From IMG/VR virus record IMGVR_UViG_3300042569_000394: a DNA stretch of 64,000 nucleotides. One strand, written 5' to 3'. Position numbers and translations under genes: made by a program. The stretch is from an uncultured virus (IMG/VR IMGVR_UViG_3300042569_000394) (Duplodnaviria > Heunggongvirae > Uroviricota > Caudoviricetes). The notes beneath the pieces are model-generated. The model was not told the origin of the DNA. It saw nothing but the letters and a program-made list of their open reading frames with translations, and made no database searches. Positions 14,901 to 45,142 of the stretch are shown in pieces. Positions within the stretch are counted from its first letter, which is position 1. Each line of letters starts with the position of its first letter.

Positions 14901-14929
14901 ATTATGACATACTTTAGTGGCGATGTCAA
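14901..14929 (-). promoter_or_regulatory. Sigma70-type promoter of dnaE
   Basis: TTGACA-17nt-CATAAT with a TG extension. Confidence 0.8.
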
Positions 14930-14936
14930 TGCCTGT

Positions 14937-14969
14937 AAACAAATGTAGGGGTACCGAAGTACCCCCACA
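14937..14969 (-). terminator. Intrinsic terminator after SSB
   Basis: TGTGGGGGTAC-TTCG-GTACCCCTACA followed by TTTGTTT. Confidence 0.85.
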
Positions 14970-25000: not shown

Positions 25001-27547
25001 CTTTGTGCCAAACTGACCACGACCATGAACCTCTACTACGCCTGGGATAGGTCTTCCAGTGTCTTTGTTATAGAAAGGCTTTGAGTATATGCGAACAAAT
25101 CCTGTTGGATACATCTTGCCATTAAACGGAATCTTTGAAAAGTAGTCCTCGTATTCTTCAAGGCTGCTAATCCAAACATCTGCTGTTTCTCCTAGCACCT
25201 TATACTGAACTGCATCATACTTAATTACTTCACCGTTGGCATAGAAGTACCCTGCGTATCTACCCATCCACTGAGCAGCGTCACCAAAGTCAATGATGTT
25301 GTCTTGAACAATACCCTGAGCATTTACTGATGGAACCCTATTGGGCAATGCTGTTTTAAGTGGGATTGCTGTTAGTGCATAGGTAGAAAGTGATCCATCG
25401 TTACCACCGTTTTGTGTCTTGGTGGCTTCTGATGGAGATACTTCCCAAAGAAGCGAAGGCTTGTATGTCCAGTTCTTGTCACGGTCTAGTTTGTTAGCCT
25501 GCTCTAGTGACGAGTAAGACTTTTCAATATACCGAGTTGTAAAGTTAATCTTTCCATCGTTGTAGACTTCTGTGTCCTGGCTTGCGATGCTAACAATGTT
25601 TGCTAGTTTTGGCTTAGTTGTTGAGTTTCTTTCTACACCATTCTTGGCAGAGTCTTTAGAGCCATATAGCGTAAGGTCTATCTCTCTGTCTGTTGCTTTT
25701 GGAAGCATGTAGTTTCTTGACATCAGAACAAAGTTGTTGTATTCGTCAAAGAACATTGCTGTTTGCGTAGAACGTGCTAGTTCGTTTAGGACTTCTGCAA
25801 CAGTTACATCTGGCTCAACATAGAAGAACGGTATGATTGGCTCTGGCTCTCCTGCTACCCTCTTAAAGATGTAGTTGCTAAAGCCAATGTTGTCCAAAAG
25901 AAACGACACTGCATAACTTAGAGATGCGTTTCTGACAAGTACCTGCGGTGCAGAGAACGATTCAAAGTAAGAGAACATATCTCTTAGGTTAATTCTTACA
26001 GTCCTAGAGTCTGCCGATATTTCTGGGAAGCCATCACCATACATAGTCTTGATAGGAACAAAGTAGTCATAGTATGTTCCGTTCTCAAGAACCTCTGCGA
26101 TAACATCATAGATCTTAAACTGGATTTGGTTTGGTGCATATTTTGCAATAATGCTTGTTGAATTATTGATGTTAAACGAATTGTCAAAGTCAAAGATTTC
26201 TATAGATCCTGTAGACACTAGGAGTTGTCCTACTGGCAATCCGCTTACGCCTAGATCTGATGCTGTTTTCTTTGCAGATACCGCCTTTGTTCTGTCGGTC
26301 ATGTTTACAGCAAGACGAGTAGACATTTCAATAAGGTCGAAGGTAGAGTCTAACTTGTTCATGGTTTCTACAACAATCCTGAGACCCTTAAGGTACTGCA
26401 TCTCTCTGAAGGTATTTCTAAATTGATTCGTTGTGTTGATAAAGTTATCTGGGCTTGTAGTGTCTGTAACAAAGTGAGTGAATCTGTCTACAGTTTCTTC
26501 TGCAACTATCCATCCATACTCTGGAGCAAACACCTGATATTCTTCATCTGCTTCAATCCATATGTGGTATTCTCCAATGTCTGTTGCAGAACTTTTAATT
26601 AGGTAGGCATATCCGTTTACCGCCTTAACAGGCAAAAGGGCTGTTGTTGAATATGTCTCAGCCTGAACAAAAATGTCTCTGTACATATCTGGAACAATTA
26701 GTCCATAAGATAATTCTACATATCCGTCTGCACCAATTACAGGAGAGCCATCTCTTCTTGTGGAGTTTGCGTCAAATGTTTTTAGGTCTTCCCATCCATC
26801 TCCGACGAGTCCCTGAATCTTCCATTTAACAGGAGTTGTTTTGTTTGCGTTTCCAAATAGTGGGTCTGGGATACTTCCATTTGCAGTAGCAATGCTTCCC
26901 TGATTAATTGTTCCGACATTAGTTTGCATCTTTACAACTACCCTGTTTGCTGGAACTACTTCTTTATAGACAACAAAAGGAACCGCATCGTCAATTGCGT
27001 ATTCAGATAGCCCACCGATTGTTCTGTTTGCTACACCATACTCTTTGCCAGTTTCTGTTCTAAAGGATGTCCAGTATTTAAACTTATCGTTTCTATCAGA
27101 CACGTAGTATCTTGGCCTGTTTGTGTCAAGGTATGATTGACCTAGACCGTTAATCGTTGTACCGTTTACGAAGTGTGTTCCAAATGTTGTAAAGTATCTG
27201 GCCTTGTTGATTCCAGATCTTGGTCTAAACTTGCCAAGGCAGTCGTCTAGAGAGAAGTACAGTTTTTTCTTTTCGTTTACAGTAGAGAATCTAATTGGCT
27301 CATTTGTTTCATTAAACCCATTCTCAATAGTAGTATCTGAGTTGGTGGCATTTTTGTGAAAAGGATCGTTTGGGTCAAACTGCACTGGTAGAAGTCTAAA
27401 GTCTGTAGATGTTTTACGATAGCGATAGTTTCCCACCATAGAAATGTTGTCAGGAATATTCATATTCCATTCAGCAGATATGAATGATCTGTTCTTAACG
27501 GATGAAGAAGTTTCTAGGTGCTCTTGTAGTTTTTCGTTAAAGAACAT
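22094..27547 (-). CDS. Large minor tail protein (tail tip/hub, 1817 aa)
   Basis: Second gene after the tape measure; C-terminal PTLQLGDIVNI...VYQIEY OB-type hub motif. Confidence 0.8.
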   Translation of the reverse strand: MFFNEKLQEHLETSSSVKNRSFISAEWNMNIPDNISMVGNYRYRKTSTDFRLLPVQFDPNDPFHKNATNSDTTIENGFNETNEPIRFSTVNEKKKLYFSLDDCLGKFRPRSGINKARYFTTFGTHFVNGTTINGLGQSYLDTNRPRYYVSDRNDKFKYWTSFRTETGKEYGVANRTIGGLSEYAIDDAVPFVVYKEVVPANRVVVKMQTNVGTINQGSIATANGSIPDPLFGNANKTTPVKWKIQGLVGDGWEDLKTFDANSTRRDGSPVIGADGYVELSYGLIVPDMYRDIFVQAETYSTTALLPVKAVNGYAYLIKSSATDIGEYHIWIEADEEYQVFAPEYGWIVAEETVDRFTHFVTDTTSPDNFINTTNQFRNTFREMQYLKGLRIVVETMNKLDSTFDLIEMSTRLAVNMTDRTKAVSAKKTASDLGVSGLPVGQLLVSTGSIEIFDFDNSFNINNSTSIIAKYAPNQIQFKIYDVIAEVLENGTYYDYFVPIKTMYGDGFPEISADSRTVRINLRDMFSYFESFSAPQVLVRNASLSYAVSFLLDNIGFSNYIFKRVAGEPEPIIPFFYVEPDVTVAEVLNELARSTQTAMFFDEYNNFVLMSRNYMLPKATDREIDLTLYGSKDSAKNGVERNSTTKPKLANIVSIASQDTEVYNDGKINFTTRYIEKSYSSLEQANKLDRDKNWTYKPSLLWEVSPSEATKTQNGGNDGSLSTYALTAIPLKTALPNRVPSVNAQGIVQDNIIDFGDAAQWMGRYAGYFYANGEVIKYDAVQYKVLGETADVWISSLEEYEDYFSKIPFNGKMYPTGFVRIYSKPFYNKDTGRPIPGVVEVHGRGQFGTKVVEHKAGLDTASWAQNVSGVTMDSDYLFSAIGNFQLRNAYIPHKATVPIKTFGTGSLAWTITAPGTLSAGSGTGVGSVTATNLKASKDYTYSLSMAGRTVYSVTQSLQPKKNIDTVTSLGNISISNIVPGSTTSTLSIKATFPSFRSFYKNTIEAGVSPGSSFSWSVVGANISGGTSGTIVAKPLTPTKKNPKTHDVGTTLIKQGTGLVTIATSTATTIDQTFTATVTNNTATDISLVINGTIVKTITVNPGTVCGVIEDLVPSLAYDNRTIAVEDTSGIKVGQQVDLIAIEKSLSKSGTDLTVTKPFDADNLNMLRVESIQSSTLFKIKHKGDTSVPLKGISAENLLKDIQAINFTDQRFLSLDSTKVAGGKTNDSGNRNSSTVGQGSSITGVIKNYLSSDTTTNNNGITNPQTVPNGSVQSSALVMSGPAFTDANDPNSVDFVSYTYKNLGADAAKYKYFGTRLRLIGKYGYGQEQSGVGEDSWYTSKQLTPSGNETTTVLKASSGGIAVLLNPVTNNGYYFEIAALSDTSISRKVTKYTQDDKIIEDPVHNLLFYKMNVGLDESNAVLTGQKATPVKLWGGLTNVSVDNGLFTGQSRMSSTNSASTVYDLAVEYEVVNENNLRFYLYVNNVLVGTVTDAEPFIDANTKKPIIYNNMALFVRGKAKCMFEHVFAISASPSQTSSTEIVSSASVPENGIFGSGSISFNESMRKYALSGIINESFLKDVSPSSPTGKAIYYEEFGTIMREAAYFNVRYDKSYPALTAQIAPTYNNDRGYVVSGFIAGPYSAEFMIFNSTDSVLVLDGTGGNYLRLQGVTFTQQATHELTVDEYFSTRSSLSDPQTPTGSSLVTSPLKEAQEYNRIRNSRSAYGKKEFTLESRYIQSQDMANSLMDWIANKIMRPRKSIGVNVFSMPTLQLGDIVNIDMKDENGTDQIAPESSRFVVYQIEYNKSNQGPEMSVYLSEVV

Positions 27548-27548
27548 G

Positions 27549-28205
27549 CTATACCTCTTCCAGGCTCAGAGACACACCCCAGAGGTCGTGCCCATATCCT
27601 CGTTTTTCTACTGAGTATGAAAAGTCTGAAAAGAAAACTTCTATAACATCTGAGTATTTGTGTAGATTGTTATACTTGTTTTGACCAGTAAAGTTATCGT
27701 ATCTATCGTATGATAGGAATAGCCAGAATGAACCTTTGTGGTTTTCATACCAGTCAAGCAATTCAATACCGCCAGCACCTCCGTCTGCCGTATACATCTG
27801 GCTCATGCCGTCTGATACAGTTGAGGTTGTTCTTAGAACTGCAAGACCATTCTCGTCAAACTCTGGTGATGCAGCATAGCCTCTAGATGGCAGTCTTTGC
27901 CAAGATGTAGAAATCTGTACCTTGTCTGCAATGTGATATGAACGCATACGACCATTGACCATACGCTCACGCTTTTCAATTCTTTGTGGCTTGAAAGATA
28001 TTTCTCCACGGTTGTGGTCAGATAGCACTAGGAAGGTCCCAGCCTCGTCAGGAGACTCTGCAATAATATCCCCATCTGATCCTAGTTCATAACCTACAGG
28101 GACGTAGAAGCCCTGCTCTGTGAGTGTTCCAGGGGTATCTGAAAGTAGCATGGCCTGTGGCCTGCCCCACTTCTTTCTACCTGCCATATACGCTGATGTG
28201 GTCAT
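27549..28205 (-). CDS. Distal-tail-like minor tail protein
   Basis: Directly after the tape measure; ends in SLSLEEV. Confidence 0.65.
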   Translation of the reverse strand: MTTSAYMAGRKKWGRPQAMLLSDTPGTLTEQGFYVPVGYELGSDGDIIAESPDEAGTFLVLSDHNRGEISFKPQRIEKRERMVNGRMRSYHIADKVQISTSWQRLPSRGYAASPEFDENGLAVLRTTSTVSDGMSQMYTADGGAGGIELLDWYENHKGSFWLFLSYDRYDNFTGQNKYNNLHKYSDVIEVFFSDFSYSVEKRGYGHDLWGVSLSLEEV

Positions 28206-31200
28206 TATAGAACATTGCTCCTAATTCGCTGTGAGTCAATCTGCTTAATCTGTGCCATTACGGTTCTTGCAATGTCATTAGCATTTGCACCTGAGTTGGC
28301 AACGTTTACGTTGACACTATAATTATACACTGAATCTCCGCCGTATGTTCCACTATTGATAGACTTTAGGTTGTCTACCCCAAAACTCTTTACCGCTGGC
28401 TGGCTTACAACGAACTCGCCTGGGGTAAGCATAGCAGGAATTGTATCTGTTCCTCTTGCAAATCCACCTGCCAGGAATCTTTGTGGCATAACCATACCAC
28501 CCATCTTAAAGCCCTGAACACCAAATGCTTTAAGTTCTGCTGTTCCGATTCCAGAACCTGCCAATGCAGAAACTAGTGGGTCGATGTTTGGCCCCTTATA
28601 TTTTTGATACGCATCGTGGGCAACATCACGAGCGTCACTAAGTGCTTTGAGTTCTGCTTTTTCTGAAGCCATCGGGCTTGGACCAATCGCTTTTTCTCTG
28701 GCTGCAAGACTATTGTTTGCCTGTGTGTAATTATCTTTTAAAGTTTTGTAGGTTTCGGCATTTGCTTTTAGCAGTTCAAGGCTGTCCCTAATTGCTGGTG
28801 AAAGTAGTGAGAATGCTTTAGATGTAGATTGCTGCAAGTTTTTTGATAGAAATGACAGGGATTTTTCAGCGGTTCTGTCGTAAGTTGCTTGTAAGTTTAG
28901 TAAGTTAGTTTTTTGATCTGCTGTTAGTGTTGCCCATTTTTTCTGATCCTGCAATCTTATATTTTTGTCTAGTCCTAATTTGCCAAACTCTTCGTTTCGC
29001 CTCTGATTAGCAGTTCTAAATAGATCTTCTGCGGTATTACCAGATGCATCTGGAGTTCTAGTATATCCATATAGATTTGAAAGACTAGTGTTAGGACCTT
29101 GTCTAAAGCGGTTACTAGTCTTTAATGCTGCCACTGCATCTTTAACAGTTGTTATTTTACCTGGGTCTGCTGGTGGACTACCTGGCACATCATCCACGAC
29201 ACCAGTTCCAGTACCGCTACCAGCATTAACAACTTTTCGTGTAATAGTTTGTGTTTGAGGCTTTGATGCTTCTGCATTCTTTTTAATTTGTTCCGCTGTT
29301 TGTGCTACAAGGGTATTAAGAATCTCTCTTTGCTTTGCAAGAATAACTTCGTTCTGTACAATCTCGTCTTTTCTAATCTCAAGAACTTGTAGTTGGATGT
29401 CGTACATCTTTTGCTCAAGGTCTGCCCTGCTTAGTTTTTGACCATTGATCTCTACGGTTAGTGCGTCTACTGCTCTCTTCTTTGCATCTTCCAAAGCCTT
29501 GACCTGTGCGTCTGCTGCAGCCTGGGCATTCTGTGCTCTAAGTTGTTGTGCAGCCTTAGCAGCAGCACCAATGTCACCACGAGATAGGGCATCGGCAATG
29601 TCTAGTTCGCCCTGCTTCTGTCTTGCAATGTCGTCATTGACAGACTTAACTTCTTGCAGTGCTTGAATCTGCTTGTCGTAGGTCTCATTAATCTTTTCTG
29701 CTTTTTTAGAGATAATGTCAAGTCCGTTTTGGTATACTCCATTCTCAGCCTCAAGAGTGTCTATCCTTACCTGTGCATCATCAATCTCGTTTTGAACCGT
29801 GCCCTTTGATAGTCTCTCTGCTGCAAGGTTGGCAAGTTTTGCTTTTGCTAATTCGTGTACCGCTTTTTTCTGATCCTTTAGATTACCAATTAGTTTGATT
29901 CCTGAAAGAGCAAGAACCATATCGGAGTCTGCCATTAGTTCAGATGTTAGTGCAGCATTTTGATTTCCAAGAGCCAAGGCTTTTGTTGCGTCAACTCTGT
30001 CATAAATTGATTTTGTAGCCTGTAGCCCACCAACAAATTGTCCTTCAATTTTTTGTCTTGCTGATATTTCATTAAGTTGTTTTAGGAACTTTGTGGCTTT
30101 ACCGCTGCTGTCAAAGAAACGTTTCATTTCTTTTTCTGCTTCTTCTTTTGGCATTCCAAGGATGTTATCAATAATGTCTTGGCTAACGTTAGCAGCAAAT
30201 AGGTTGTTGGTTAATCCAGAGAACATGTTCTTAAAACTTGACCCCTTCTTGGCAAATGCTTCCAAAGCCTTTTGTGATGCACTATATCCAACTGTTAGTT
30301 TCTGTGAAGCATCTGTTAGGTCTCTAACACCCTTTACGTAATCATCTAGCCATGATGCAGATGGGCCACCCCCATTATTGTTTTGATTCCCTGCCCCGAC
30401 TGTATTGTCTACAAGAATTCTATCGTTTACGGCTCTTCTGGCTACAAAGTCGGTGTACATTCCCCAACCAACAATATCAGCCTTTGCTCCGTCTTTATTC
30501 TCTGGAGAACTTAGCCAAGCCAAAAAGTTTGGATCTTCAAAGTTCATAGTTCCAGAAAAGGTAGCAACATAAGATAAATATATTTGTTGCTCCGCTTTTG
30601 TTTTAATTGTAGAAAAGTATTTTTCATTATCTCTTAAAACATCCATTGCCTGCTCGTTCAAGATGCTTGCTCTCTGAACAATATCTACAGTTAGCATCTT
30701 TGGCTTGAGGTTTTTAATCTCTTCAATATCTTCCATCAGGGCTTTTTCAACATCTGGTCGCTTAGAAACAAAATCAACTAGAACTGTTGCGTCAATCCAG
30801 TTGCTGTTCATTCTTCCAAGTTCGCTATACATCTGTAGAAGTTGTTCTGCCTTTTCTCCCTTTACGGTAGACATTTTGGTCACAAACTCTGCTTGCATCT
30901 TTTTGTTAGATTTTCCATTTTCGTCAACAAACATTCTGCTTACTTGCAAGACTTGGGCAAGTCCAGTTCCAGTAAGGTTTGTTCGAATGTCAAATGCTTT
31001 TTGCATAACATCTGCGTCATTCTTTACAAGACTTGTAAGAAGAAGCATTGAGTCTGGGTCTATAGTTGTTCCAAGATCAAGCAGTAGGTTGTATCTCTGC
31101 CCCTTATCTGTTACCGATGATCTTAGATTTTCTATTGCTATTGTCGCAAGGTCTTCCTGAGCAGTACCCTTGTATTTTTTAGTAACGACCTTTTCGGCAC

Positions 31201-34200
31201 CAGATAAGAGTTGATCTTGGTAATCGCTTGCAGCAAATGAATCGCTAATTTGTTGCTGAGTTTCGGCTGTTTTGTTTAGTAGTTTCTGTCGGGCGGTGAT
31301 GTATTCATTTTGTAGTCTTTCTGCTTTGGCTGCGTTGCCTGCTGCTTCGGCTACTTTAATTCTCTTTTCATAGTCTAGTTCTAGAGAGTCTAGTAGTTGC
31401 TTTTGTTGGTTTAGAGCAGCAGCCTGGATTGCTACGTTTGCACCTGCAAGTTTACCCAAGCGTTTTCCATACTCTTCAGAGGCTGTGAAGTATCCAGTAA
31501 TTCCTCCAGCAACTGTTCCGATAACTGCCCCAATTCCAGCACCAATTGGACCAGCAATCATCGATCCTGCAACAGCACCTGCAGCAGCACCCACACCAGC
31601 ACCAGCAGCGATACCGCCAAGCATCATTCCAGTTTCATCGCCATTCCTCATGCCACTATTTTCTATATTTGTTGCCGCAGTAGAAATCTGTTCTTGAGAT
31701 TGCTGTATGATTTTTGTTCTAATTTCTAAACCATTTTTAAGAATGTCTTCGCCGTTTGGTCCCATGAGGCTTGCTAGTTCTCCAGCAACCTTGATGCCAA
31801 GGTTTACGTTACCCATCTTTTTACCAATGCTAATGGCAATACTTCTCGCTTGCTTTGTTGTTATTGCATTAGACAAAACTGCTGTAGAAAGTTGAGCAAA
31901 TAGTGCCGATTGTTGAGAGGCCCCACCCATCGCAGCACTTGCTGATCCTAGGGCTTTGGTCGTTGCTTGACCAGTTTCAGACTCAACAAAACTTTCTCCA
32001 AATGTTGATTTTCCGCTAACAACTGTAAATGGGCTAAGTTGTCCCTGCCTACGCCTATCCATAATTTCAGAGGCAGTTACCTTGCCAGCAAAGTCAGCGA
32101 GTCCTTGAATTGCTTTCGCACCAGCACCAATTGAATCAGTGAATTCAAGAACCTTGTCAATTCCGCTAGCAATCGTGTCGTTATATTTTGTCATTGAAAG
32201 CCAAGCAACGGCGACGGCTGCTGCAAGTAGGGTAATGAAACCCATAGTTTTACCCATATTTTGAAGTAGCATCGTAAGCATTGAGAAGCCACCAAGAAGT
32301 GGTGTGATTGCTTGTGCTACTTTTCCAACTTCTCCACCCATCATCGAAAGGCTACCCATAACCATAGATGCTGTCATCATGTATCCAGAAAGGTTTCTGG
32401 TGAATTTCTCCATGCCAGCACCCTTAGTCTTGGTTCCTGGACCTGCACCATCTCCACCAGGAACTCCCTTGCCCTGCTGAATGTTATTCAAAAGTTCTTT
32501 GTCAATAGCAATTCCACGCTGTTCTGCTAGGCGTAGTCTTTCCTTAATTACCTCGGACTCAAGGCCGTTGGCTTCCATATCTTGAATAAGAGCGTTTTCT
32601 TTTTCTTGCATTATCTGCATGTCTCGTGCAGCAGCATCAAGTTCTTGTTGGGTAAACTGATATCCTTGTTGGTGCTTTGCTTGAAGAATTTCTGCCTGTG
32701 TTTGAAGTGCAAGATATTCTTCATCAGTACCGAGAAGCATTTGCTGTGCTAGCATCTGTCTCTGTTCGTGGATCATGGTCCTAGACTGAACTTCTTTATC
32801 GATATTGTTTTCGAAGTGGTTCATAATCTTAGTTCCTGCTGCAACAACCTTAGCCTTTAGTTTTTCAAAGCCGTTAGAAAGCATTGTAAGGCCCTTGTCT
32901 GCAATGGCTGATGCAGCCTGTCCTGCAAGTTTTCCACCTGCTGGCCCAAAGGCTCTTGTGCCGTAGAACTGTCCAGCAGCACCAGCAGCCATGCTTGCTA
33001 CCTTAATCTTTGCACGTTGTACTAGACCAAGTTTCTTCGCTGGCTGTTCTGCTGGCGGTACTGATTCAGCACCCTGATTATAAGACTGTTGATCTTGTGC
33101 ACCTAGGTCAAAGGCATCGTGGTGTGGACTACTACGCTTTGCTTTATCTTGAATTAATTCAAAGGGGTCGTCCTGTGGGGCAACAACACTCTCAGCACCG
33201 TCAATAAATTCACCCATATCTCCTGCACCAGTTGCTGAAGGAGGAACTGTGTTAGCCATTGGCACACGAGGTCTGTCATTCCTAATTCTTGATTCTCTAA
33301 TTGATGATGCTGGCCTTGGCAACAGTGTTCCGTCTGGTGCAATTGAGTGTTTTCCGTCTTCGGTCGTGGGGAATCCAGCAGCATCTAACTGCTCACGAGC
33401 ATTTACTCTAACATCATAAATATTGCTCTCTAGTTGTTCGATTGTTGGACTAATTCCAGCAATCTGAGGTCCTAATTTTTCTCTTGCTTTTCCAATAATA
33501 TCTGCAACCTGAGAAGATCTTATGTTTAGTTCACCAAAGTTTTCAACAGCCCTGAGAATTTCTTGATCTAATAGTTCTATTTCTGGTAAGTGTTCTTCCC
33601 AATTTAGCCCAGCATTTTCAAACGTCTGCTTCCATTTTTCGGGACCACGCCTCTTAAAGTCTGCAGCAAAGTCTGCTGTTGGTACTGGATTGTCAAACTT
33701 CATCTTATTGTTAAGTTGCGAATCTTGTGCAAAAGTAAATCCAGAGCCTGCTATAACTTCAAAGTTTGGGATATATTTAATATACTGTTCTAGTTGTTTT
33801 TTGAATGCTCCCTTTATTTGGTCTGTTCCTGATGCTAACAGTTCCGAGGCTAACATTGTGCCAGATTCTTTTACGTGAGCCTGATCTGTACTATATATCT
33901 CGCTTGGATGTAACCCTAGTGGCACTCCTGCCTGCTTTGCTGCTGGTGGATAGTAAGAAGGCCTCATGTTGACTTCTGGCCTTTGTTCTGTTCCAAGGTT
34001 TTTATTTTGAGTGAAGAATTCTGTCATACTTCTTTCAGCAACTGTTTTTGCCTGCTGTACATATATCTTAACTTGCTCTAAAAGGTCTTTTTGAAGTTCA
34101 CCCTGTGTATTTTTTACAATAAGTTGAATTTCTTGTCTAAGTTTTGCTTCAAATAGGTCTGGGTTATTGCCACCATATTTTGACATTGCTTCAGAAACAA

Positions 34201-37200
34201 CGCTTTCCTCATCAAACGGTTCTTCTCCAAGAATACCGCCTTGTGATAGTTTAAGAACCTTTCCAGAAATTAGGCTTTCTACTAGGCCTCTGTTTCTTGA
34301 TACGGAATCAGCAGGTATTACTGCTTCTCCATTTGAAAGCATTGCAGGGATTGAATCGCTTGTTCCTGTACCAGGGCCAGAAACCATACCGCCTCTGGCA
34401 TATTTTTGAACCCCATACCCAGGATTTGTTCCAATATTCCAGTTAACATATTCTGATGGACCAATTTCAAAACCTTGATATCCTTCTTTTATTAATGACT
34501 GAATAAATGGGTCACCTATCTTACCGCCAATACCAGAAGAGTATGGGTCTAAGCCACCTTCTTGTAGATCGTACAAAATTCCCTCTACAACATCAGACTT
34601 GAGACCACCATTCTTTATCCAATCCATTGCTTTTTGTTTTAGAATGCCATCGTTACCCCAGCCATTTATATAACCTTTACCACCGATAGTTTGTTTGAGT
34701 GCGTCATCAGACATAGAAATCTTATACTCATTTTTACCCCATAGATTCTTTTTACCAGTAGCAAAATCTCTTTCTCCAGTGACTGCCGAAAAGTACATTC
34801 CTTTACCAAGGTTTGAGATTCTATAGTTACTTGGCACAGTATCTGGGTGCAAAAGTTCTGATAGTTTTGGATTGTTGGTTTGGTGTACAGCAAGTTTATC
34901 CATAATTGCAGCCTTGAGTCCAGGGGCTAGAGAGTCCCAGTTTCCTCCAGATTGCTGCACCATATCATTTAGTGTTTTTAACTGTATTGCGTCTTGTCCG
35001 TTTAGTGGCTTAACCTGTTTTAAAAATTCTAGGTATGAGTTGTCAAAACTCATAGGATTTAGTCCAAGAGATTTTCTATCTGGAAGAATACCACCCTTAG
35101 CCATCTTGAGTATTCCACCCATAGCCATTTTCTTGGGGCTTTTCTTCTTTTTAGCAGTAGGGAGTGGGTTAAGCATTGGTGGTGTGCGACCTGGGAAGTA
35201 CTGTGCCCACTCTGCAGAGATCTTAGCCTGAATCTCTTCTGGGGTCATGTCATAGTACTCGTCAGTTATTTCGCTATCCATTAGGTCGTTAGCAAATAAG
35301 TATTGTTCGTAGCGTTTACGAGCAACGGTGGTTTCTGGGCTATCATATTTACCTTCTGGCAATTTTTCATAGGCTTTTTCCATAGCAACAAATGCTAGTG
35401 CGGTTTCGTAGAATCCTCTGGCTTCTGTTACGTCTGCTGGTTCTTGTTCTGGAACAACTTTACCCTTTCCAATGATTCCACCCTTAGCCATCTCAAGTAT
35501 TCCACCCATAGCCATTTTTAGAGGGTTAAATGCTGGTATGCCTAACAGGCCAACAGCACCACGTGTCTTATCCATATCGTCATAGAATTCTTCAATCTTG
35601 TGATCGCTCATCAACCTAGCAGTTTTTTCATACTTCATTCGTTCTGGTCTGCGATAGTCTCCGTCTTTTCTTGACATCAATCTAACCTTGGTTGTGTCAA
35701 TTCCAAGTTTGGCTAGAGTTTCTAGGGTAATGTTATCAGCAGACTTGGGCCTTGCTGTCATAAGAATAATCGTGTTTCCACGTGCTTGTGCTTCGTGAAG
35801 TTTGGCAATGGTTGCAGGCATTCCAACTGGGTTCTTTGCTACCTCAGTTTTCCAGTCAAGTCTTTCTTCTACTGGAAGTTTTTCATTTGCTGCTCTGTGT
35901 CCAGGCATAAACGATCTTAGATCAAGCAGGGTGTCGTCAATGTCAAAGATTGATGTTGGTTTTCTTGGGTCAACGTTTTCTCCAACAATACCGCCCTCTG
36001 CCATCTTCTTTGGTGGAGTAAGTTTAAGGTTGCTGTGAAGTGCGTGATACTTTGTCCAGTCTACACCTCTTGCAGCCTCTAGACGAGCAACCATGTTTCC
36101 GTATACTGCCTGTTCTTCTGGTGTTAGGTCTGGGAAGCCAGCAATTGTTTGTTTAAGTCTTGGAAGCGTTTGCTCAATCTCATTACGCATTCTGTCTTGG
36201 TATTCTTGTGGTGACATGCTTGCAGCAATACCCTTAGTGCTTTCAGCAAACCATTTCTTTGCACCACCCTTTACTCCAAGAAGATTAATAAGAGCCTGTT
36301 CTTCCATGGACTTCATGTTAGGTTCGTATTCTCTGAATCCAGATGCCTTTGCAAATACCCCTGCAGTTCCGACATCTGGAAGAATGTTTCCTCCGAGGTT
36401 TCCCTGTCCTAGGTCTTTATCTCCACGCAGTAGCGATGCCACTAGTTGTGTTGTATATTCTTCCTTTGAGAATGTTTGTGGAACTTCAGAGAACGTTGGG
36501 TCAAAGTCTGACTCAAGGGCATAGAACCTTCTGGTTCCAGTCTTGTCTGTAGGGTCGTTGATTGCAACAAGTCTTTGCTGTGGTGATCTCAGACCATGAG
36601 CACCTCTCGCAATCTCTGTTCCACGAATTTCTGCCATAGCAGACTGGAAGTCCATAACTGGCTTTACGAATACTTTACGACCATCAAAGGTCTCGTACAT
36701 TCCACCAACTCTAAATAGTGGGAAACTGTGTCCCTTAGATACTGAAAGTTGGTGCTTGTATTTTGTTACTGGCATGTCTGCTCGTGGTGATTCAGCAAAC
36801 TTAGCATAAACCGCCTGTGCGTCTTCTTGACTACGCTGTCTAGCCTTAAACGACTGTGGCATTCCAAGGAACTGCTTTTCTCCCTTGTTAACAATTCCAC
36901 CTTCAGCAAGTTTTAGAACCTTACCAGAAATAAGGTTTTCTACAAGCCCTCTGTTTTTCTTTACTGATTTTGCTGGAATAACGGCTTCACCATTAGACAA
37001 CATTGCTGGAACTGAATCTGAGGTTCCTGTTCCAGGTCCAGAAACCATTCCACCCCTAGCAAATTTTTGTGGAGCAATGTTGGTTGGATTAGTTCCAGCA
37101 GGACTATACGCTCTCTGGGCATCTATGTTTCTTACATAAGACTGAGTTAGTTGATCTACTGCTACCGCTTCTGAAGTAAATCTTTGTGTTAGTTGTTGGT

Positions 37201-39052
37201 GAATCTGGTCAAGAGATGCTGCTACCGCTGCTGCCTTGATCTGTGTTTCGGTCATGTATGTGGTTGATTCTCCAAGCATACCTGTTTCTTGTGTTGTTCT
37301 GTTAATGAAAGACTTGATGTTGACAAACATCTTGACAAGGTTTGCAATACCGTTCGCTACTAGACCAACAGACATAAGAAGTAGTGGACCAACACCAGCA
37401 ACCAAACCTGTAAATGTTACCCAGAAGGCTTTTGACCCTTCTGACATTTTGTTAAATCCGTCAAGGAACTTAGAAACAAAATCTAGGATTGGGGTTACTG
37501 CCTTAAGGAATGCCTCTCCAATTGGAGCAAGTTTAACCTTGATATCCTCAACAGCCTTTTGAAACTTAAACATTGGGGAACTTTCTACCCTCTTCAGTTC
37601 TCGCTCAGACAGGATTGCAAGTTCTTCTGTGGTTGCGTTACTTAGTTCTAGAACCTTTTGTGCCTGAGTTCCTTCTTGAATTACGTTTTGGAACAATGTC
37701 GATAGACGTGAAAACTGGAACTTACCGAACATTTGCTCAATGGCACGTGCTCGGTTTAGTGGGTCTAGGGTATCTAGTGCACTAGCAAAATCTAGGACAA
37801 GGCCCTTTACATCGCCCTTGTTTGCCTCAACAATGCCCTTAACATTTACACCAAAACTTGCAAGGAACTCAGATGCTTTTCCTGTTGGGTTAATCAAAGA
37901 TGCAAGACCAGACTTAAGTGCGTTAGCACCCTCAGATGCGTTAATTCCACCTTCCTTCATTGCTGTCAGGAAGAATGCTAGATCTTGTACGTCTCCACCA
38001 AGTTGTTTAACAACTGGTGCAGCCTTTGGAATAGCAATGGTGAGGTCTTCGATAGATGTAACAGTTTGGTTTTCAACTGCGTTAAGGAAGTCAATCTTTC
38101 CTGCTAGGTCTTCTGCTGCAATTCCAAAAGCGTTAGTTAGAGACATTGTTGTTTCTAGTGCTTGTGCCTGTTCTACAGATCCAAGTACCGCAAGTCTTGT
38201 AGCATTTGCTACCTGCTGCATAAGGTCTGCTCCGACCTTACCTGCTGCTGCTGCCTCGGCAGCCATTTCCATTGTGTCTGCTACCGCAACACCATACTTA
38301 GTGTATTCCTGAGCAAGAATTTTTAGGTTCTTAATCATGTCTTCTGATTCTTTTGCAGTAGTTCTAAAATCTCCGTAGACACGCTTAAACTTGATAGAAC
38401 CCTTTTCTAGTTCCATGTACATCTTTGCTGCTGCAGTACCTGCCATTGTTAGCGGTACGGTAAAACCAACCATCAACTGACGACCAGCCCACTGGGTGTT
38501 CTTACCCCAGTTGAGAAGGTTAGTTGATCCTTGCTTTAGTAGTTGGTTTAGTATCTGTTGTTTCTGGGCAGCGATGGCTGTTTTTGTTCCCAGGTCATTC
38601 ATGTCAAGAACTAGAGGTCTAACTGCGATTGCCTTCATGGCACCGCTAGCGTCACGGCCTAGTTGGATGTATTGGGTTTGAAGAGTCTTGACTCTTTCAC
38701 GAGCAACCTTATCAATGGTTGACATTTCGGACTTGAATAGTTTTCCGAAGTTCTTTGTTGCACCGCCAGCATACCTAAAGTATTGGCCCATTGAGAGTTT
38801 GTTTTTCTCAAGTGCTTCTGTAAAAGACTCTGTGGTGGTCTTGATGTTTTGAATGCTTGCATTAAACTTACCTGCAGCATTAATATCATTGATTAGATTT
38901 TGTCTAAGTTTGGCTGCTGCTGCTGCTTGTGTGGCAGAGCCACGAGCCATCTGTGTTTGGAAGGCTGATATCTGAGACTGTAACGCCTTTAAATTTGCTA
39001 AGGCCTGACTGGTATCAATATTAATATTGATATTAGTCTGAGAATCAGCCAT
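28205..39052 (-). CDS. Tape measure protein (3615 aa) with embedded enzyme-like domains
   Basis: Follows tail tube and chaperones; TP901-type core (ASEGANALKSGL...AIEQMFGK), hydrophobic segments, glycine zipper, coiled coils; internal kinase, HAD and ART motifs. Confidence 0.93.
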   Translation of the reverse strand: MADSQTNININIDTSQALANLKALQSQISAFQTQMARGSATQAAAAAKLRQNLINDINAAGKFNASIQNIKTTTESFTEALEKNKLSMGQYFRYAGGATKNFGKLFKSEMSTIDKVARERVKTLQTQYIQLGRDASGAMKAIAVRPLVLDMNDLGTKTAIAAQKQQILNQLLKQGSTNLLNWGKNTQWAGRQLMVGFTVPLTMAGTAAAKMYMELEKGSIKFKRVYGDFRTTAKESEDMIKNLKILAQEYTKYGVAVADTMEMAAEAAAAGKVGADLMQQVANATRLAVLGSVEQAQALETTMSLTNAFGIAAEDLAGKIDFLNAVENQTVTSIEDLTIAIPKAAPVVKQLGGDVQDLAFFLTAMKEGGINASEGANALKSGLASLINPTGKASEFLASFGVNVKGIVEANKGDVKGLVLDFASALDTLDPLNRARAIEQMFGKFQFSRLSTLFQNVIQEGTQAQKVLELSNATTEELAILSERELKRVESSPMFKFQKAVEDIKVKLAPIGEAFLKAVTPILDFVSKFLDGFNKMSEGSKAFWVTFTGLVAGVGPLLLMSVGLVANGIANLVKMFVNIKSFINRTTQETGMLGESTTYMTETQIKAAAVAASLDQIHQQLTQRFTSEAVAVDQLTQSYVRNIDAQRAYSPAGTNPTNIAPQKFARGGMVSGPGTGTSDSVPAMLSNGEAVIPAKSVKKNRGLVENLISGKVLKLAEGGIVNKGEKQFLGMPQSFKARQRSQEDAQAVYAKFAESPRADMPVTKYKHQLSVSKGHSFPLFRVGGMYETFDGRKVFVKPVMDFQSAMAEIRGTEIARGAHGLRSPQQRLVAINDPTDKTGTRRFYALESDFDPTFSEVPQTFSKEEYTTQLVASLLRGDKDLGQGNLGGNILPDVGTAGVFAKASGFREYEPNMKSMEEQALINLLGVKGGAKKWFAESTKGIAASMSPQEYQDRMRNEIEQTLPRLKQTIAGFPDLTPEEQAVYGNMVARLEAARGVDWTKYHALHSNLKLTPPKKMAEGGIVGENVDPRKPTSIFDIDDTLLDLRSFMPGHRAANEKLPVEERLDWKTEVAKNPVGMPATIAKLHEAQARGNTIILMTARPKSADNITLETLAKLGIDTTKVRLMSRKDGDYRRPERMKYEKTARLMSDHKIEEFYDDMDKTRGAVGLLGIPAFNPLKMAMGGILEMAKGGIIGKGKVVPEQEPADVTEARGFYETALAFVAMEKAYEKLPEGKYDSPETTVARKRYEQYLFANDLMDSEITDEYYDMTPEEIQAKISAEWAQYFPGRTPPMLNPLPTAKKKKSPKKMAMGGILKMAKGGILPDRKSLGLNPMSFDNSYLEFLKQVKPLNGQDAIQLKTLNDMVQQSGGNWDSLAPGLKAAIMDKLAVHQTNNPKLSELLHPDTVPSNYRISNLGKGMYFSAVTGERDFATGKKNLWGKNEYKISMSDDALKQTIGGKGYINGWGNDGILKQKAMDWIKNGGLKSDVVEGILYDLQEGGLDPYSSGIGGKIGDPFIQSLIKEGYQGFEIGPSEYVNWNIGTNPGYGVQKYARGGMVSGPGTGTSDSIPAMLSNGEAVIPADSVSRNRGLVESLISGKVLKLSQGGILGEEPFDEESVVSEAMSKYGGNNPDLFEAKLRQEIQLIVKNTQGELQKDLLEQVKIYVQQAKTVAERSMTEFFTQNKNLGTEQRPEVNMRPSYYPPAAKQAGVPLGLHPSEIYSTDQAHVKESGTMLASELLASGTDQIKGAFKKQLEQYIKYIPNFEVIAGSGFTFAQDSQLNNKMKFDNPVPTADFAADFKRRGPEKWKQTFENAGLNWEEHLPEIELLDQEILRAVENFGELNIRSSQVADIIGKAREKLGPQIAGISPTIEQLESNIYDVRVNAREQLDAAGFPTTEDGKHSIAPDGTLLPRPASSIRESRIRNDRPRVPMANTVPPSATGAGDMGEFIDGAESVVAPQDDPFELIQDKAKRSSPHHDAFDLGAQDQQSYNQGAESVPPAEQPAKKLGLVQRAKIKVASMAAGAAGQFYGTRAFGPAGGKLAGQAASAIADKGLTMLSNGFEKLKAKVVAAGTKIMNHFENNIDKEVQSRTMIHEQRQMLAQQMLLGTDEEYLALQTQAEILQAKHQQGYQFTQQELDAAARDMQIMQEKENALIQDMEANGLESEVIKERLRLAEQRGIAIDKELLNNIQQGKGVPGGDGAGPGTKTKGAGMEKFTRNLSGYMMTASMVMGSLSMMGGEVGKVAQAITPLLGGFSMLTMLLQNMGKTMGFITLLAAAVAVAWLSMTKYNDTIASGIDKVLEFTDSIGAGAKAIQGLADFAGKVTASEIMDRRRQGQLSPFTVVSGKSTFGESFVESETGQATTKALGSASAAMGGASQQSALFAQLSTAVLSNAITTKQARSIAISIGKKMGNVNLGIKVAGELASLMGPNGEDILKNGLEIRTKIIQQSQEQISTAATNIENSGMRNGDETGMMLGGIAAGAGVGAAAGAVAGSMIAGPIGAGIGAVIGTVAGGITGYFTASEEYGKRLGKLAGANVAIQAAALNQQKQLLDSLELDYEKRIKVAEAAGNAAKAERLQNEYITARQKLLNKTAETQQQISDSFAASDYQDQLLSGAEKVVTKKYKGTAQEDLATIAIENLRSSVTDKGQRYNLLLDLGTTIDPDSMLLLTSLVKNDADVMQKAFDIRTNLTGTGLAQVLQVSRMFVDENGKSNKKMQAEFVTKMSTVKGEKAEQLLQMYSELGRMNSNWIDATVLVDFVSKRPDVEKALMEDIEEIKNLKPKMLTVDIVQRASILNEQAMDVLRDNEKYFSTIKTKAEQQIYLSYVATFSGTMNFEDPNFLAWLSSPENKDGAKADIVGWGMYTDFVARRAVNDRILVDNTVGAGNQNNNGGGPSASWLDDYVKGVRDLTDASQKLTVGYSASQKALEAFAKKGSSFKNMFSGLTNNLFAANVSQDIIDNILGMPKEEAEKEMKRFFDSSGKATKFLKQLNEISARQKIEGQFVGGLQATKSIYDRVDATKALALGNQNAALTSELMADSDMVLALSGIKLIGNLKDQKKAVHELAKAKLANLAAERLSKGTVQNEIDDAQVRIDTLEAENGVYQNGLDIISKKAEKINETYDKQIQALQEVKSVNDDIARQKQGELDIADALSRGDIGAAAKAAQQLRAQNAQAAADAQVKALEDAKKRAVDALTVEINGQKLSRADLEQKMYDIQLQVLEIRKDEIVQNEVILAKQREILNTLVAQTAEQIKKNAEASKPQTQTITRKVVNAGSGTGTGVVDDVPGSPPADPGKITTVKDAVAALKTSNRFRQGPNTSLSNLYGYTRTPDASGNTAEDLFRTANQRRNEEFGKLGLDKNIRLQDQKKWATLTADQKTNLLNLQATYDRTAEKSLSFLSKNLQQSTSKAFSLLSPAIRDSLELLKANAETYKTLKDNYTQANNSLAAREKAIGPSPMASEKAELKALSDARDVAHDAYQKYKGPNIDPLVSALAGSGIGTAELKAFGVQGFKMGGMVMPQRFLAGGFARGTDTIPAMLTPGEFVVSQPAVKSFGVDNLKSINSGTYGGDSVYNYSVNVNVANSGANANDIARTVMAQIKQIDSQRIRSNVL
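34229..34402 (-). repeat. Copy 2 of the 58-aa xARGG...GPGTGTSDS.PAMLSNGEAVIPA...KVLKLxxGG module
   Basis: Near-identical in protein to 36890-37063. Confidence 0.9.
35084..35131 (-). repeat. Direct repeat B encoding KMAMGGILKMAKGGIL
   Basis: A 41-nt core matches 35478-35518 with 2 mismatches. Confidence 0.9.
35471..35518 (-). repeat. Direct repeat A encoding KMAMGGILEMAKGGII
   Basis: Matches 35084-35131. Confidence 0.9.
36890..37063 (-). repeat. Copy 1 of the 58-aa FARGG...GPGTGTSDSVPAMLSNGEAVIPA...LAEGG module
   Basis: Paralogous to 34229-34402 and, more distantly, to the C-terminal module starting at 28510. Confidence 0.9.
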
Positions 39053-39078: not shown

Positions 39079-39399
39079 TTATACTGCGAAATTTGGAGAT
39101 GCGTTTTGTGCGATCTTAAGACCTGACGCTTCCTCCACGATTTCATATACAGTCGGTAGATCTAGAAGATCCTCCAATGATTCTGGCTTTTCCGCTAGTT
39201 CTGGTTTGTATTGCTTCATAGCAATAGCCACACATTCTAGAAGAAGGTCCATCGATTTTGAATTGTTGTCAGCAACCTCTGAAATCTTTTCAAACTTGTC
39301 CATGAATGGACGAAGTAGCGAGATCTTTAGTGGTCTGATTTCAATTTTTGTTCCGTCAAGCAAGGTAACTGTTCTTGCTTCTTGTACTGTTGTTGCCAT
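39079..39399 (-). CDS. Tail assembly chaperone (G-like)
   Basis: Between tail tube and tape measure; AAGGAGG RBS; own TGCTATAAT at 39429-39437. Confidence 0.75.
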   Translation of the reverse strand: MATTVQEARTVTLLDGTKIEIRPLKISLLRPFMDKFEKISEVADNNSKSMDLLLECVAIAMKQYKPELAEKPESLEDLLDLPTVYEIVEEASGLKIAQNASPNFAV

Positions 39400-39454
39400 G
39401 TGATTTCCTCCTTTTAAGGGTATACAATATTATAGCATAAACGAATTAGATTGG

Positions 39455-40138
39455 TCAAACCTTTTCATAGGATAGGCCCATGCCGATTCCAAATCCAGCC
39501 TTTGCTGCTTTTTGTCCTCGGAGAGATGTAACATCATTGGGGTCTCCACCTTTATTGAACACCTTGTTTTTAAGTTTTTCCCAAGGATCTTCCTGTTTCT
39601 TTTGTTCGCTTTCCATATCAATGCCCTTTAAGGCTGCCATAAACTTTCTTTGATTATATATGTCTTCTCTTTTGGCGTTCAGGGTCTCTGATAGTTCTGG
39701 CATTGATAGCGAGGATTCTAGTTCTTCATAGTCTTTCCAGATACCCAGCAAGAATACTTCAGACTCCAGTTTTGCTAGGTCTATCTTTTCCCAAGAGTTA
39801 TTCTCATCGTGATTAGCCTGCTCTGGTAGGCTCTCTCCTGCCTCTTCTGGTGCCTTCATACTAATACCTCCAGCAATTTCAAGAACCTTGTAAAGTGTTG
39901 GCAGATCGAACAAGTCTTCTATCTGGCTTACTGTCTTTATTTCTGGCTGGTATTGCATCATGGCTATCAGGGCACATCTAGATACAAACTCAAATGCGTC
40001 TGAGTTGTCAATAGATTCACGCACGTTTTGAAACTCATCCATAAACAATCTAAGATATTTTATCTTGAGTGGAGTGATGTATATCGGTTCACCGTGGATG
40101 GTGAATATCATTGCCGAATTATATATTTTACTTGCCAT
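39455..40138 (-). CDS. Tail assembly chaperone, extended paralog (GT-like)
   Basis: First ~95 aa align with 39079-39399; extra C-terminal domain; ATG 6 nt after TGGTACAAT. Confidence 0.72.
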   Translation of the reverse strand: MASKIYNSAMIFTIHGEPIYITPLKIKYLRLFMDEFQNVRESIDNSDAFEFVSRCALIAMMQYQPEIKTVSQIEDLFDLPTLYKVLEIAGGISMKAPEEAGESLPEQANHDENNSWEKIDLAKLESEVFLLGIWKDYEELESSLSMPELSETLNAKREDIYNQRKFMAALKGIDMESEQKKQEDPWEKLKNKVFNKGGDPNDVTSLRGQKAAKAGFGIGMGLSYEKV

Positions 40139-43958: not shown

Positions 43959-45107
43959 CTATGAGTCTGCACCAGCGTCTGCGAATGCAACTGCATCCTC
44001 TTCTTCCCACTGAACACCAAAACGAACGAATACTGTGTATTCAATTGTGTCCTTCTTTGGCTTGTATTCACGGTTTACAGTGATGTCTCGCTGGAAACCC
44101 CAGATACGGTTCTGAGGGAATGTTAGGTCAACGTAACCTGCAGGGTAGTATGGAACTTCCTGCACGTCAATTCCTAGAACACGAGTAGTACGTGCTCCAC
44201 CGAATGTCTGACCTGCACCATCTAGGTATGCCTGACGGTTTGCTGGAGTACCTGCTGGAGTACCAGCAAATGCTTCTGCGATTGCGTCTGCAAGTGTACC
44301 GTTATTCTTGATAATACCCTGGAATGCGTCAGTACCTGCGTAGAACTTAAGATTGCTCTTAAGGGCACGGTACTTACGTGGCATAGCCAAGATAATGTCT
44401 TGCATAACTTCTGGAGTCCATGCGTTGCCTGAAACAGTTACAACTGATTCGTGAGCATCGCCGTTCTCCTTGGTCTTGTTAACAAAGCCTTCCATGATAC
44501 CAAGGAATGCACCATCGCCACTGTCTCCAGTACCGTTGATTGCAAGGTCCTCAATGTCATTTGCGAATGCATTTGTCATTAGACGTACTAGGTGGTCCTC
44601 TAGAGCACCACCTTCAATACCATCTTCTAGTGCTTCAGCAGATACTTCCCAGTCAAGACGGATCTTCTTGGTGGTAAGTTCTACCTTTGTGAATGCAGCA
44701 CCTGCGTTGGTGTAGTCACCAATTGCCTGTGTTGCAGAACGGATTACACGCTCACCTACGTTAACTTTTTCAAGTTCCATAGTGTTTGCTCTCATGGTCA
44801 CACGGCGACCATCCTTGGCGAGTACAGTAGCATCCCATACGTAATCAATGAAACGTCTTGCCTGTTCTGGACGAAGGATACCGCTCCCTGCTTCTCCCGA
44901 AGGATTGACAGCGTTTGCACCGTTTGTCACACCTGTCAGTGCTGTTGGAATGTTTCCAATTGCACCGCCATCTGTGTAGTTACCTGGAATGTTGTCTGCT
45001 GCGTCAGAACCTGATGCAAATGCACCTTGCCCCTGGTATAGACCTGGAGCGGTTCCGCCGAGATTGCCGCTAGTTCCTGGCTGATTTTTAATAATTTCTT
45101 CCGACAT
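43959..45107 (-). CDS. Major capsid protein (HK97 fold)
   Basis: GILRPEQARRFI, EVSAEALEDGIEG, FANDIEDLAING; GGAGGTGA RBS. Confidence 0.92.
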   Translation of the reverse strand: MSEEIIKNQPGTSGNLGGTAPGLYQGQGAFASGSDAADNIPGNYTDGGAIGNIPTALTGVTNGANAVNPSGEAGSGILRPEQARRFIDYVWDATVLAKDGRRVTMRANTMELEKVNVGERVIRSATQAIGDYTNAGAAFTKVELTTKKIRLDWEVSAEALEDGIEGGALEDHLVRLMTNAFANDIEDLAINGTGDSGDGAFLGIMEGFVNKTKENGDAHESVVTVSGNAWTPEVMQDIILAMPRKYRALKSNLKFYAGTDAFQGIIKNNGTLADAIAEAFAGTPAGTPANRQAYLDGAGQTFGGARTTRVLGIDVQEVPYYPAGYVDLTFPQNRIWGFQRDITVNREYKPKKDTIEYTVFVRFGVQWEEEDAVAFADAGADS

Positions 45108-45142
45108 ATTGTTCACCTCCTGAGTGATTTTTTGTTTTTTTG

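Follow-up and report, generated by a model that had tools for sequence, protein, structure and literature searches.

What are enzyme domains doing inside a phage tape measure protein (TMP), and what becomes of them at infection? The question is raised by a gene in a 64,000-nucleotide stretch of DNA from an uncultured virus of the Caudoviricetes (IMG/VR record IMGVR_UViG_3300042569_000394), here called the window, in which positions 28205..39052 of the minus strand form a single open frame of 3615 amino acid residues (aa; P0001). The product is, by its domain matches, the TMP of an uncultured siphophage: the Pfam scan places PF10145 (PhageMin_Tail) at aa 250-443 (E = 3.5e-24; 86.2 bits, cut-off 33.2), and PHROG tape measure families match the open reading frame (ORF) at E values as low as 2e-93. 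A TMP fills the tail tube, leaves the tail first at infection and forms a channel. In this one, about 950 residues (aa 656-1609) appear to be a series of enzyme cassettes built into the ruler, comprising a kinase-like domain, a HAD phosphatase domain, a small domain without a family assignment and a possible ADP-ribosyltransferase (ART)-like domain; the array has copies of a conserved C-terminal TMP module on both sides, and its cassettes are parted by K-[FMLY]-A-x-G-G-[IML] motifs. The explanation that we prefer, while rating it slightly short of an even chance, is that the cassettes would be injected along with the ruler and freed by cleavage at the motifs.

Motifs and modules in the tape measure protein

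A sequence-only reading of the window had proposed that eleven related motifs punctuate the protein. The strict pattern [FMLY][AS]xGG has nine matches, at aa 664, 715, 1017, 1180, 1188, 1309, 1317, 1551 and 1602, compared with a mean of 0.84 and a maximum of 4 in 1000 shuffles of the same protein; two looser variants near the C terminus, FKMGG (aa 3515) and FLAGG (aa 3526), bring the count to the eleven proposed. That reading had placed the element at 28205..37063, which indeed covers the stretch between stop codon and first motif, but the gene itself reaches 39052.

The array had also been said to be bracketed by two copies of GPGTGTSDS.PAMLSNGEAV. Copies stand at aa 672 and 1559, and a third, GTDTIPAMLTPGEFV (aa 3533-3547), has diverged; they belong to a module of about 60 aa that occurs three times in the TMP (window coordinates of all parts of the gene are on the minus strand). 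Module copy 1 (aa 656-722; 36887..37087) runs from QK-FARGG through GPGTGTSDSVPAMLSNGEAVIPAKSV to LK-LAEGG, with its motifs at aa 664 and 715, and copy 2 (aa 1543-1609; 34226..34426) runs from QK-YARGG through GPGTGTSDSIPAMLSNGEAV to LK-LSQGG; each internal module opens with one motif and closes with another. The C-terminal module (aa 3506-3575; 28328..28537) includes FKMGG and FLAGG together with the diverged copy. Six residues, G, G, D, G, E and V, are invariant in 33 aligned copies of the module. The two internal copies share 81% identity as protein and 73% as DNA, and codons vary among the motif copies, which indicates that the peptide is conserved and not the DNA alone. A complex prediction for three copies of a 75-aa module, made with the 33-row alignment, scored 0.03 against a mark of 0.42, which speaks neither for nor against a trimer. 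The stretch SDS-x-PA-x-L-x-x-GE-x-V resembles the signal/LexA peptidase motif, GxSM-x-P-x-L-x-x-GD; the module as an S24/LexA-like self-cleaving peptidase was considered and rejected, since about 60 aa is too short and the serine is missing in lambda and T5.

Between the two internal modules the cassettes are separated by KK-MAEGG at the kinase/HAD border (aa 1017; 35990..36004) and by two double motifs, LK-MAMGG-ILE-MAKGG (aa 1180 and 1188; 35477..35515) and KK-MAMGG-ILK-MAKGG (aa 1309 and 1317; 35090..35128). The sizes of the intervals agree with those given in the sequence-only reading, which had described them as self-contained domains; two of them prove to be enzyme folds with catalytic-type motifs that appear intact.

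Cassette gain, loss and exchange among relatives

A search with aa 650-1620 returned 424 proteins of 2000-6300 aa, of which the 120 listed ones were analyzed; relatives carrying a given segment were counted by BLAST of the window segments against these 120, the window's own protein included. The same architecture is also present in 293 IMG/VR stretches. All 120 have the N-terminal TMP part (49-98% identity among the matches listed) and the module, of which every relative has at least two copies (three in 74, four in 43). Such recurrence bears on the possibility that the array is an artefact, that is, a chimeric assembly or genes fused through sequencing error. The uncultured source and the unusual length of the protein speak for it, but the architecture recurs in hundreds of proteins and stretches, an identical protein is recorded on three contigs, and loci L001 and L002 match at 100%; we consider an artefact exceedingly improbable.

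Locus L002 and the window's TMP gene are identical at 3944 of 3944 nucleotides (nt) before, and at 6903 of 6904 nt after, a single point (1 difference in 10,848 aligned bases). At that point L002 has an extra 507 nt (169 aa; L002:5249-5806), at the double motif corresponding to window 35090-35128, and the extra residues are a GNAT acetyltransferase (PF00583; 21.5 bits, cut-off 20.7). The junction can be placed anywhere in a 12-nt direct repeat that codes for the motif residues G-G-I-L. In P0002 and P0003, which are 89-90% similar to the window in the cassette-array search, a GNAT domain replaces the ART-like cassette, with breaks exactly at the motifs. Cargo swapping at the motifs among homologous TMPs, which the sequence-only reading had suggested looking for, is seen in both the GNAT insertion and this replacement. 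The window, L002, P0002 and P0003 together represent four cargo states among close relatives.

Between P0001 and the 119 other relatives, 744 BLAST alignments have ends that cluster at aa 660-669, 710-729, 1010-1029, 1180-1209, 1540-1559 and 1590-1609. When domain borders were set by homology rather than by regular expression, 74 of 119 relatives had the pattern Phi-[AS]-x-G-[GVT] (Phi, hydrophobic) no more than 45 aa past the kinase, and it stood no more than 40 aa from the HAD domain in 27 of 34 on the upstream and 25 of 34 on the downstream side, compared with 10.9% of 6000 random 50-aa segments. A clustering of motif-bounded segments was dropped because the loose regular expression cut inside domains, and the alignment end-point and boundary analyses were used instead. 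Gain, loss and exchange of cassettes take place at the motifs, and, as the junctions indicate, exchange proceeds by recombination in the short repeats that code for them.

Strict motifs number 478 across the 120 relatives, where shuffles predict 91. K-[FYLM]-A-x-G-G-[MILV]-[VI] is the family consensus, and many relatives have V or T in place of the second motif glycine (Y-A-N-G-V-x-S-V-P-G). Three relatives (P0065, P0063 and P0054) have four to five tandem 11-residue repeats (KPSYYAKGGIV) directly before the C-terminal module.

The polymorphic part of the array lies C-terminal to the kinase. P0031 (2129 aa) is the sole one of the 120 without the kinase, its slot being filled by an ART-like cassette, and the same protein has an inositol-monophosphatase domain (PF00459) near its C terminus. 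The TMP at L037:5506-17517 has an OmpA peptidoglycan-binding domain at aa 2714-2807, and the precomputed Pfam annotation of relatives also lists PF01471, PF08230 and PF09329 (zf-primase), the first two of which are named PG_binding_1 and CW_7.

A protein-kinase-like domain in nearly every relative

The first interval (aa 723-1012; 36017..36886) had been called kinase-like, and structure prediction agrees. An AlphaFold2 model built on a 47-row alignment drawn from IMG/VR loci has a predicted local distance difference test score (pLDDT) of 87.9 and a predicted template modeling score of 0.86. In Foldseek, 45 of the 47 matches shown are protein kinases or pseudokinases, all of them weak (best E = 1.4e-3; template modeling score 0.42 for CtkA). 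A structure search independent of Foldseek gave CotH at Z = 11.8 (root mean square deviation 4.0, 214 residues aligned), followed by MavQ (10.8), CtkA (9.9), PI4KIIalpha (9.6), HipA (9.4) and Fam20 (8.9), with kinases or kinase-fold proteins making up 49 of the 50 matches listed. K797, E808, D878, D880, N885 and D893 are invariant in 47 of 47 sequences, with kinase roles assigned to them by eye. The segment has no sequence match in the PDB (as single sequence or profile), Pfam or PHROGs. The model confirms a predicted bilobal protein-kinase-like fold, and its top structural neighbors span protein, lipid and small-molecule kinases.

The sequence-only reading had further counted this domain as polymorphic cargo, which does not hold up. 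BLAST finds the kinase in 119 of the 120 relatives. None of 50,697 deposited phage records contains it, matches there ending at or before query residue 112 of 361, and a search for stand-alone versions gave 12 short proteins, most from contigs of 0.7-3 kb; the four examined (P0131, P0132, P0134 and P0137) are pieces of TMPs, none of them stand-alone. Near-universal presence, known only inside TMPs, marks the kinase as a conserved TMP-specific part and not as polymorphic cargo. A place in the entry machinery, or in a general modification of the host, is likelier for it than a role as a variable anti-defense effector. With both lipid kinases (MavQ, PI4K) and secreted protein kinases (CotH, Fam20, CtkA) among the structural neighbors, a step that modifies the host membrane or envelope is no less plausible than host takeover.

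The HAD phosphatase and the rarer cassettes

The second interval (aa 1022-1178; 35519..35989) is a HAD phosphatase domain, as had been proposed. The isolated segment matches PF03767 (HAD superfamily, class IIIB acid phosphatase-like) at E = 4e-12, with 46.6 bits against a cut-off of 27, and also phrog_415, "polynucleotide kinase" (E = 3.4e-11). Its motif I, DIDDT at aa 1037-1041, fits the DxDx[TV] nucleophile motif. The domain is present in 34 of the 120 relatives.

The small domain that follows (aa 1195-1305; 35138..35470) has no Pfam or PHROG match and is found in 5 of the 120, with two copies in P0002.

The fourth cassette (aa 1323-1548; 34409..35086) is rare and possibly ART-PolyVal-like. 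It has 11 matches, itself included, among 1.84 billion representatives, and is present in 9 of the 120 relatives; several of its relatives are C-terminal parts of other TMPs with the same motifs flanking. The sequence-only reading had it as ART-like, for which we find sub-threshold signals only. One of 12 relatives gives a PARP (PF00644) match, at E = 0.066. By Atlas features the cassette's nearest neighbors are clusters that bear ART-PolyVal PF18760 (score 0.90; 160 features are shared, where true members typically have 170), and weak BFVD matches to its model include three ART-PolyVal proteins at E = 0.16-5. The segment itself has no Pfam match at E <= 5, PF18760 was not found in the nearest record (G001), and the Atlas comparison of the homologue P0126 gave a best score of 0.87, without a family. 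The model is mediocre (pLDDT 68.8, below 50 in the putative core) and has no significant fold match, PDB structure searches hitting the N-terminal helices only; by sequence the segment has no PDB match save the module of Douge gp16, which is reached via flanking residues in the profile. Set beside the H-Y-E or R-S-E catalytic residues of ARTs, an alignment of 12 sequences has conserved H69, Y99 and G-x-G-x-Y-F-[AS], with no conserved Glu seen, and the conserved LHP...G-x-G-x-Y-F-[AS] stretch resembles the PARP signature. An ADP-ribosyltransferase at aa 1323-1548 is a lead that we put at about an even chance.

Beyond module copy 2, a further segment (aa 1610-2010; 33023..34225) is present in 7 of the 120 relatives and has no match in Pfam, PHROG or PDB sequence searches.

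The module in other phages

The module is akin to one found in ordinary TMPs, as sequence comparison shows. By tblastn it is present in TMP genes of 292 deposited phage records, including Mycobacterium (88), Vibrio (56), Gordonia (37) and Arthrobacter (30) phages and others. Its place varies: in Pseudanabaena phage Pan1 it lies 65 aa from the C terminus, as in lambda, and in Arthrobacter phage Bridgette it is internal. Module copy 1 matches the TMP of Douge (PDB 8zdo) at E = 4e-12, and this protein, gp16, has two module copies. In the TMP of a cultured phage, Mycobacterium phage Aegeus (L083:2187-7091), copies at aa 939-998 and 1330-1388 bracket an NlpC/P60 domain. A cassette bracketed by modules is thus the architecture of the known TMP-embedded wall hydrolases, used here with other enzymes.

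Proposed carriage of the array in the tail

TMP C termini sit in the hub in T5 (PMC10038345), lambda (PMC12617516) and Douge (PMC13033339). In this phage the array would occupy the third of the tail lumen nearest the head, with the hydrophobic stretches at aa 542-577 and 2245-2518 on either side, and the cassettes would probably be carried unfolded or extended in the tube. They may then leave just ahead of the DNA and enter the host envelope or cell. In TM4, deletion of a motif embedded in the TMP cut the tail from 200 to 180 nm (PMC1796659); an embedded motif that adds to tail length is consistent with an extended state in the tube. The 3615 aa of the window's TMP predict, at 0.15 nm per residue, a tail of about 540 nm.

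The TM4 result can also be turned to another use. The module and motif repeats could be tail-assembly elements, setting the register of the chains or binding chaperone, tube or hub, with inserts that tune the ruler or aid envelope penetration and are not effectors. The length added by the TM4 motif would fit, as would the tandem 11-residue arrays adjoining the hub-binding C terminus in relatives, the conservation of the module in the ordinary TMPs of the 292 records and a kinase that is nearly universal in the family and seen inside TMPs only. The catalytic-type residues of the kinase, invariant in 47 sequences, and the intact HAD motif I argue instead for selection for enzyme activity, and near-identical phages tolerate a difference of 169 aa, which goes against a tuned ruler length. 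Nor is the module resolved in the solved tails considered, where residues 1658-1699 alone are seen for Douge gp16 (PMC13033339) and residues 817-853 alone for lambda gpH (PMC12617516). We judge a role in assembly improbable.

Are the motifs cleavage sites?

The main support for the motifs as cut sites comes from T5. Its TMP, pb2, is cut after R1127, as found by mass spectrometry, which parts the muralytic portion from the remainder (PMC10038345). In the T5 record the residues VPR are followed at the cut by AEGGMMYPGVSYQMGEHGTEVVTP, so that R1127 directly precedes AEGGMM. The pattern A.GG[MILVFY] occurs once in the 1219 residues of pb2, at residue 1128, and a unique motif would fall on the cut by chance roughly 1 time in 1200.

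Lambda gpH loses about 14 kDa from its glycine-rich C-terminal region, the exact site, mechanism and protease being given as unknown (PMC12617516). The gpH sequence (NC_001416) contains FATGG at 733 and YATGG at 778 (RGYATGGYV) with HRGEFV between them, much as the sequence-only reading had stated (F/YATGG...GEFV), and a cut before A734 would yield fragments of 79.8 and 12.5 kDa (computed). The C-terminal module of the window's TMP is 32% identical to gpH residues 704-777 over 74 aa (E = 0.002 in a single comparison).

In the preferred explanation, the motifs would be TMP maturation cleavage sites as in T5 pb2 and probably lambda gpH. If all nine strict sites were cut, the predicted pieces are 71.5, 5.1, 33.5, 18.3, 0.8, 13.7, 0.8, 25.5, 5.1 and 217 kDa, that is, an N-terminal piece of 71 kDa, enzymes of about 33, 18, 14 and 25 kDa and a C-terminal ruler/channel piece of 217 kDa.

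Several observations weigh against this explanation. Pfam scans of the TMP, whole and as nine segments, and of 29 neighboring ORFs revealed no peptidase domain, and the only peptidase-fold protein found is a 192-aa NlpC/P60 protein, probably a lysin, 21 kb away on the other strand. The likeness to T5 is a six-residue motif judged by eye: a hidden Markov model of the module gives no domain in pb2 at E <= 10 and matches lambda gpH weakly (E = 0.007 with one target), and T5 has Arg before the Ala where the TMP family has a hydrophobic residue. Many relatives have Y-A-x-G-V, so the double glycine is not essential, and the tandem KPSYYAKGGIV arrays have the look of a structural repeat rather than of spare cleavage sites. 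The repeats have a part in recombination, as the 12-nt microhomology shows, and this could explain the cassette borders without a protein-level role. Three (or six) folded 33-kDa domains do not fit abreast in the tube, so that unfolded cargo has to be assumed. A JAB/MPN protease of the lambda gpK type was considered as the cutter at GG, and no such domain is present among the 29 neighboring ORFs.

Much of this would suit an array that is delivered with the TMP and left uncut, its motifs serving as linkers and recombination junctions and its enzymes acting while tethered at the envelope or channel. Such an arrangement agrees with cassette indels at microhomology in the motif-coding repeats, with the lack of a protease in the scanned ORFs and with the change of GG to GV or GT in many relatives. 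Peptidoglycan-binding cargo, namely, OmpA in L037 and PG_binding_1 and CW_7 in others, is also suited to the envelope. According to PMC12617516, moreover, T5 and lambda have the only TMPs known to be cleaved. Set against these points, a plain linker does not need the position-specific conservation of K-Phi-A-x-G-G-Phi-V, the variation of codons between motif copies points to selection on the peptide, and the mapped T5 cut carries the same motif; in addition, kinase, HAD phosphatase and GNAT are cytoplasmic-type enzymes with presumably different targets. We take an uncut array to be a real possibility, though not the expected outcome.

The proposal that the motifs are cut can be carried further. 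Phi-A-x-G-G-Phi together with the P-A-x-L-x-x-G-E-x-V module might be a general siphophage TMP maturation site, with the mapped T5 site and lambda gpH as examples, which a large clade of uncultured, probably actinobacterial phages has multiplied up to eleven-fold. The result would be a true polyprotein from which kinase, phosphatase, acetyltransferase and ART-like enzyme are freed into the host before the DNA enters, and which acquires new cargo via recombination in the motif-coding repeats. This extended version is, in our estimation, rather unlikely to hold as a whole.

Genomic context and host

Outside the array, the TMP consists of an N-terminal part (aa 1-655; 37088..39052), whose hydrophobic stretch at aa 542-577 was located by hydropathy, and a long ruler part (aa 2011-3505; 28538..33022) with hydrophobic/glycine-zipper stretches at aa 2245-2290 and 2476-2518 and weak glycine-zipper Pfam matches.

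Coding in the window is almost wholly on the minus strand and includes a siphophage structural module in the order portal (46533-48176), head protease, major capsid protein (43959-45116), Ig-domain tube-like protein, chaperone-like ORFs, TMP, 218-aa ORF and 1817-aa minor tail protein, followed by replication genes. The TMP lies, as in siphophage tail modules, between tail chaperone-like ORFs and distal tail/hub genes. On its 5' side are two chaperone-like ORFs (39079..40138, minus strand), both matching phrog_10504; they occupy 39079-39399 and 39455-40138, with the same phrog_10504 domain at both starts, and resemble chaperone paralogs more than the usual G/GT frameshift pair. On its 3' side, 22094..28205 (minus strand) holds the 218-aa distal-tail-like ORF and the 1817-aa minor tail/hub ORF (phrog_10359 minor tail protein, E = 4.7e-60), and the Pfam scan of the latter gives no peptidase domain.

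By capsid protein, the nearest deposited phages are Streptomyces phages of 128-133 kb, at 39% identity. The TMP of one of these, Comrade (2107 aa), shares the N-terminal part of about 560 aa (29% identity, Comrade aa 19-576) and a weak 195-aa stretch, and sequence comparison found neither motifs nor modules in it. The phage is, by such protein comparisons, distantly related to large Streptomyces phages, and an actinobacterial host is a reasonable guess.

Other genes of the window are noted for completeness. The NlpC/P60 protein (60335-60913; PF00877, E = 3e-22) is encoded by one of the few plus-strand genes, and no link between it and TMP processing was found. Beside the portal gene, an ORF of 1250 aa (48572-52324, minus strand) has neither a PHROG match nor a Pfam family above threshold and could be a head-associated or ejected protein. 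A 2-oxoglutarate-Fe(II) oxygenase (53850-54506, minus strand; PF13640, E = 6e-13) lies within the structural region. A DNA polymerase of 1124 aa (11594-14968, minus strand; phrog_405, E = 0), with primase, DnaB-like helicase and single-stranded DNA-binding protein nearby, indicates a large phage with its own replisome.

Relation to known systems and significance

The T5 and lambda TMPs share with the window's protein the Phi/R-A-x-G-G-Phi motif, at the mapped cut of T5 and in the processed region of gpH. They have one or two motifs near the C terminus, and lambda has no enzyme cargo, whereas the window's TMP has nine to eleven motifs and two extra internal modules that delimit about 950 aa of enzymes. 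Mycobacteriophage TMPs (TM4 gp17 mt3, Piuri and Hatfull 2006; Aegeus; Douge) are similar in having an enzyme within the TMP, with modules bracketing NlpC/P60 in Aegeus and two modules in Douge. Theirs is a single cell-wall enzyme; the window's family has serial cytoplasmic-type enzymes (kinase, HAD and, in relatives, GNAT) with rapid cassette turnover.

Polyvalent proteins are a second point of comparison. They combine many unrelated enzyme domains in one polypeptide, are delivered with the DNA and are thought to be processed into units, and among those domains are kinases, ART-PolyVal and inositol phosphatase (Iyer et al. 2017; PMC5512222). Unlike the protein described here, they are packaged in the head or delivered by conjugation and have an MPTase peptidase of their own; the word "tape" does not occur in PMC5512222. 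The window's TMP resembles them in having several unrelated effector-type domains in one ORF, with virion delivery suggested by its identity as a TMP, and its relative P0031 carries an inositol-monophosphatase domain (PF00459). The chassis differs in being a TMP, in which Pfam scans detect no MPTase or other peptidase and a short motif and a module mark the junctions. In the Tal proteins of lactococcal phages Tuc2009 and TP901-1, an enzyme domain is reportedly released by cutting at a Gly-rich site; these are tail tip lysins rather than TMPs and have another motif.

A literature search that did not cover most subscription journals found no account of a TMP with kinase, HAD or GNAT cassettes and no description of the motif as a cleavage consensus. 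TMP-embedded wall hydrolases and polyvalent proteins are already known; what appears to be new is a series of exchangeable cytoplasmic-type enzyme cassettes within a TMP.

The motif is a concrete candidate for the cleavage site of lambda gpH. It also marks natural insertion points at which a TMP tolerates foreign domains, which is useful in engineering phages of laboratory hosts. The architecture is common in uncultured phages, with 424 proteins and 293 IMG/VR stretches, and a cassette-bearing TMP would give phages a further way of delivering ready-made activities ahead of any gene expression.

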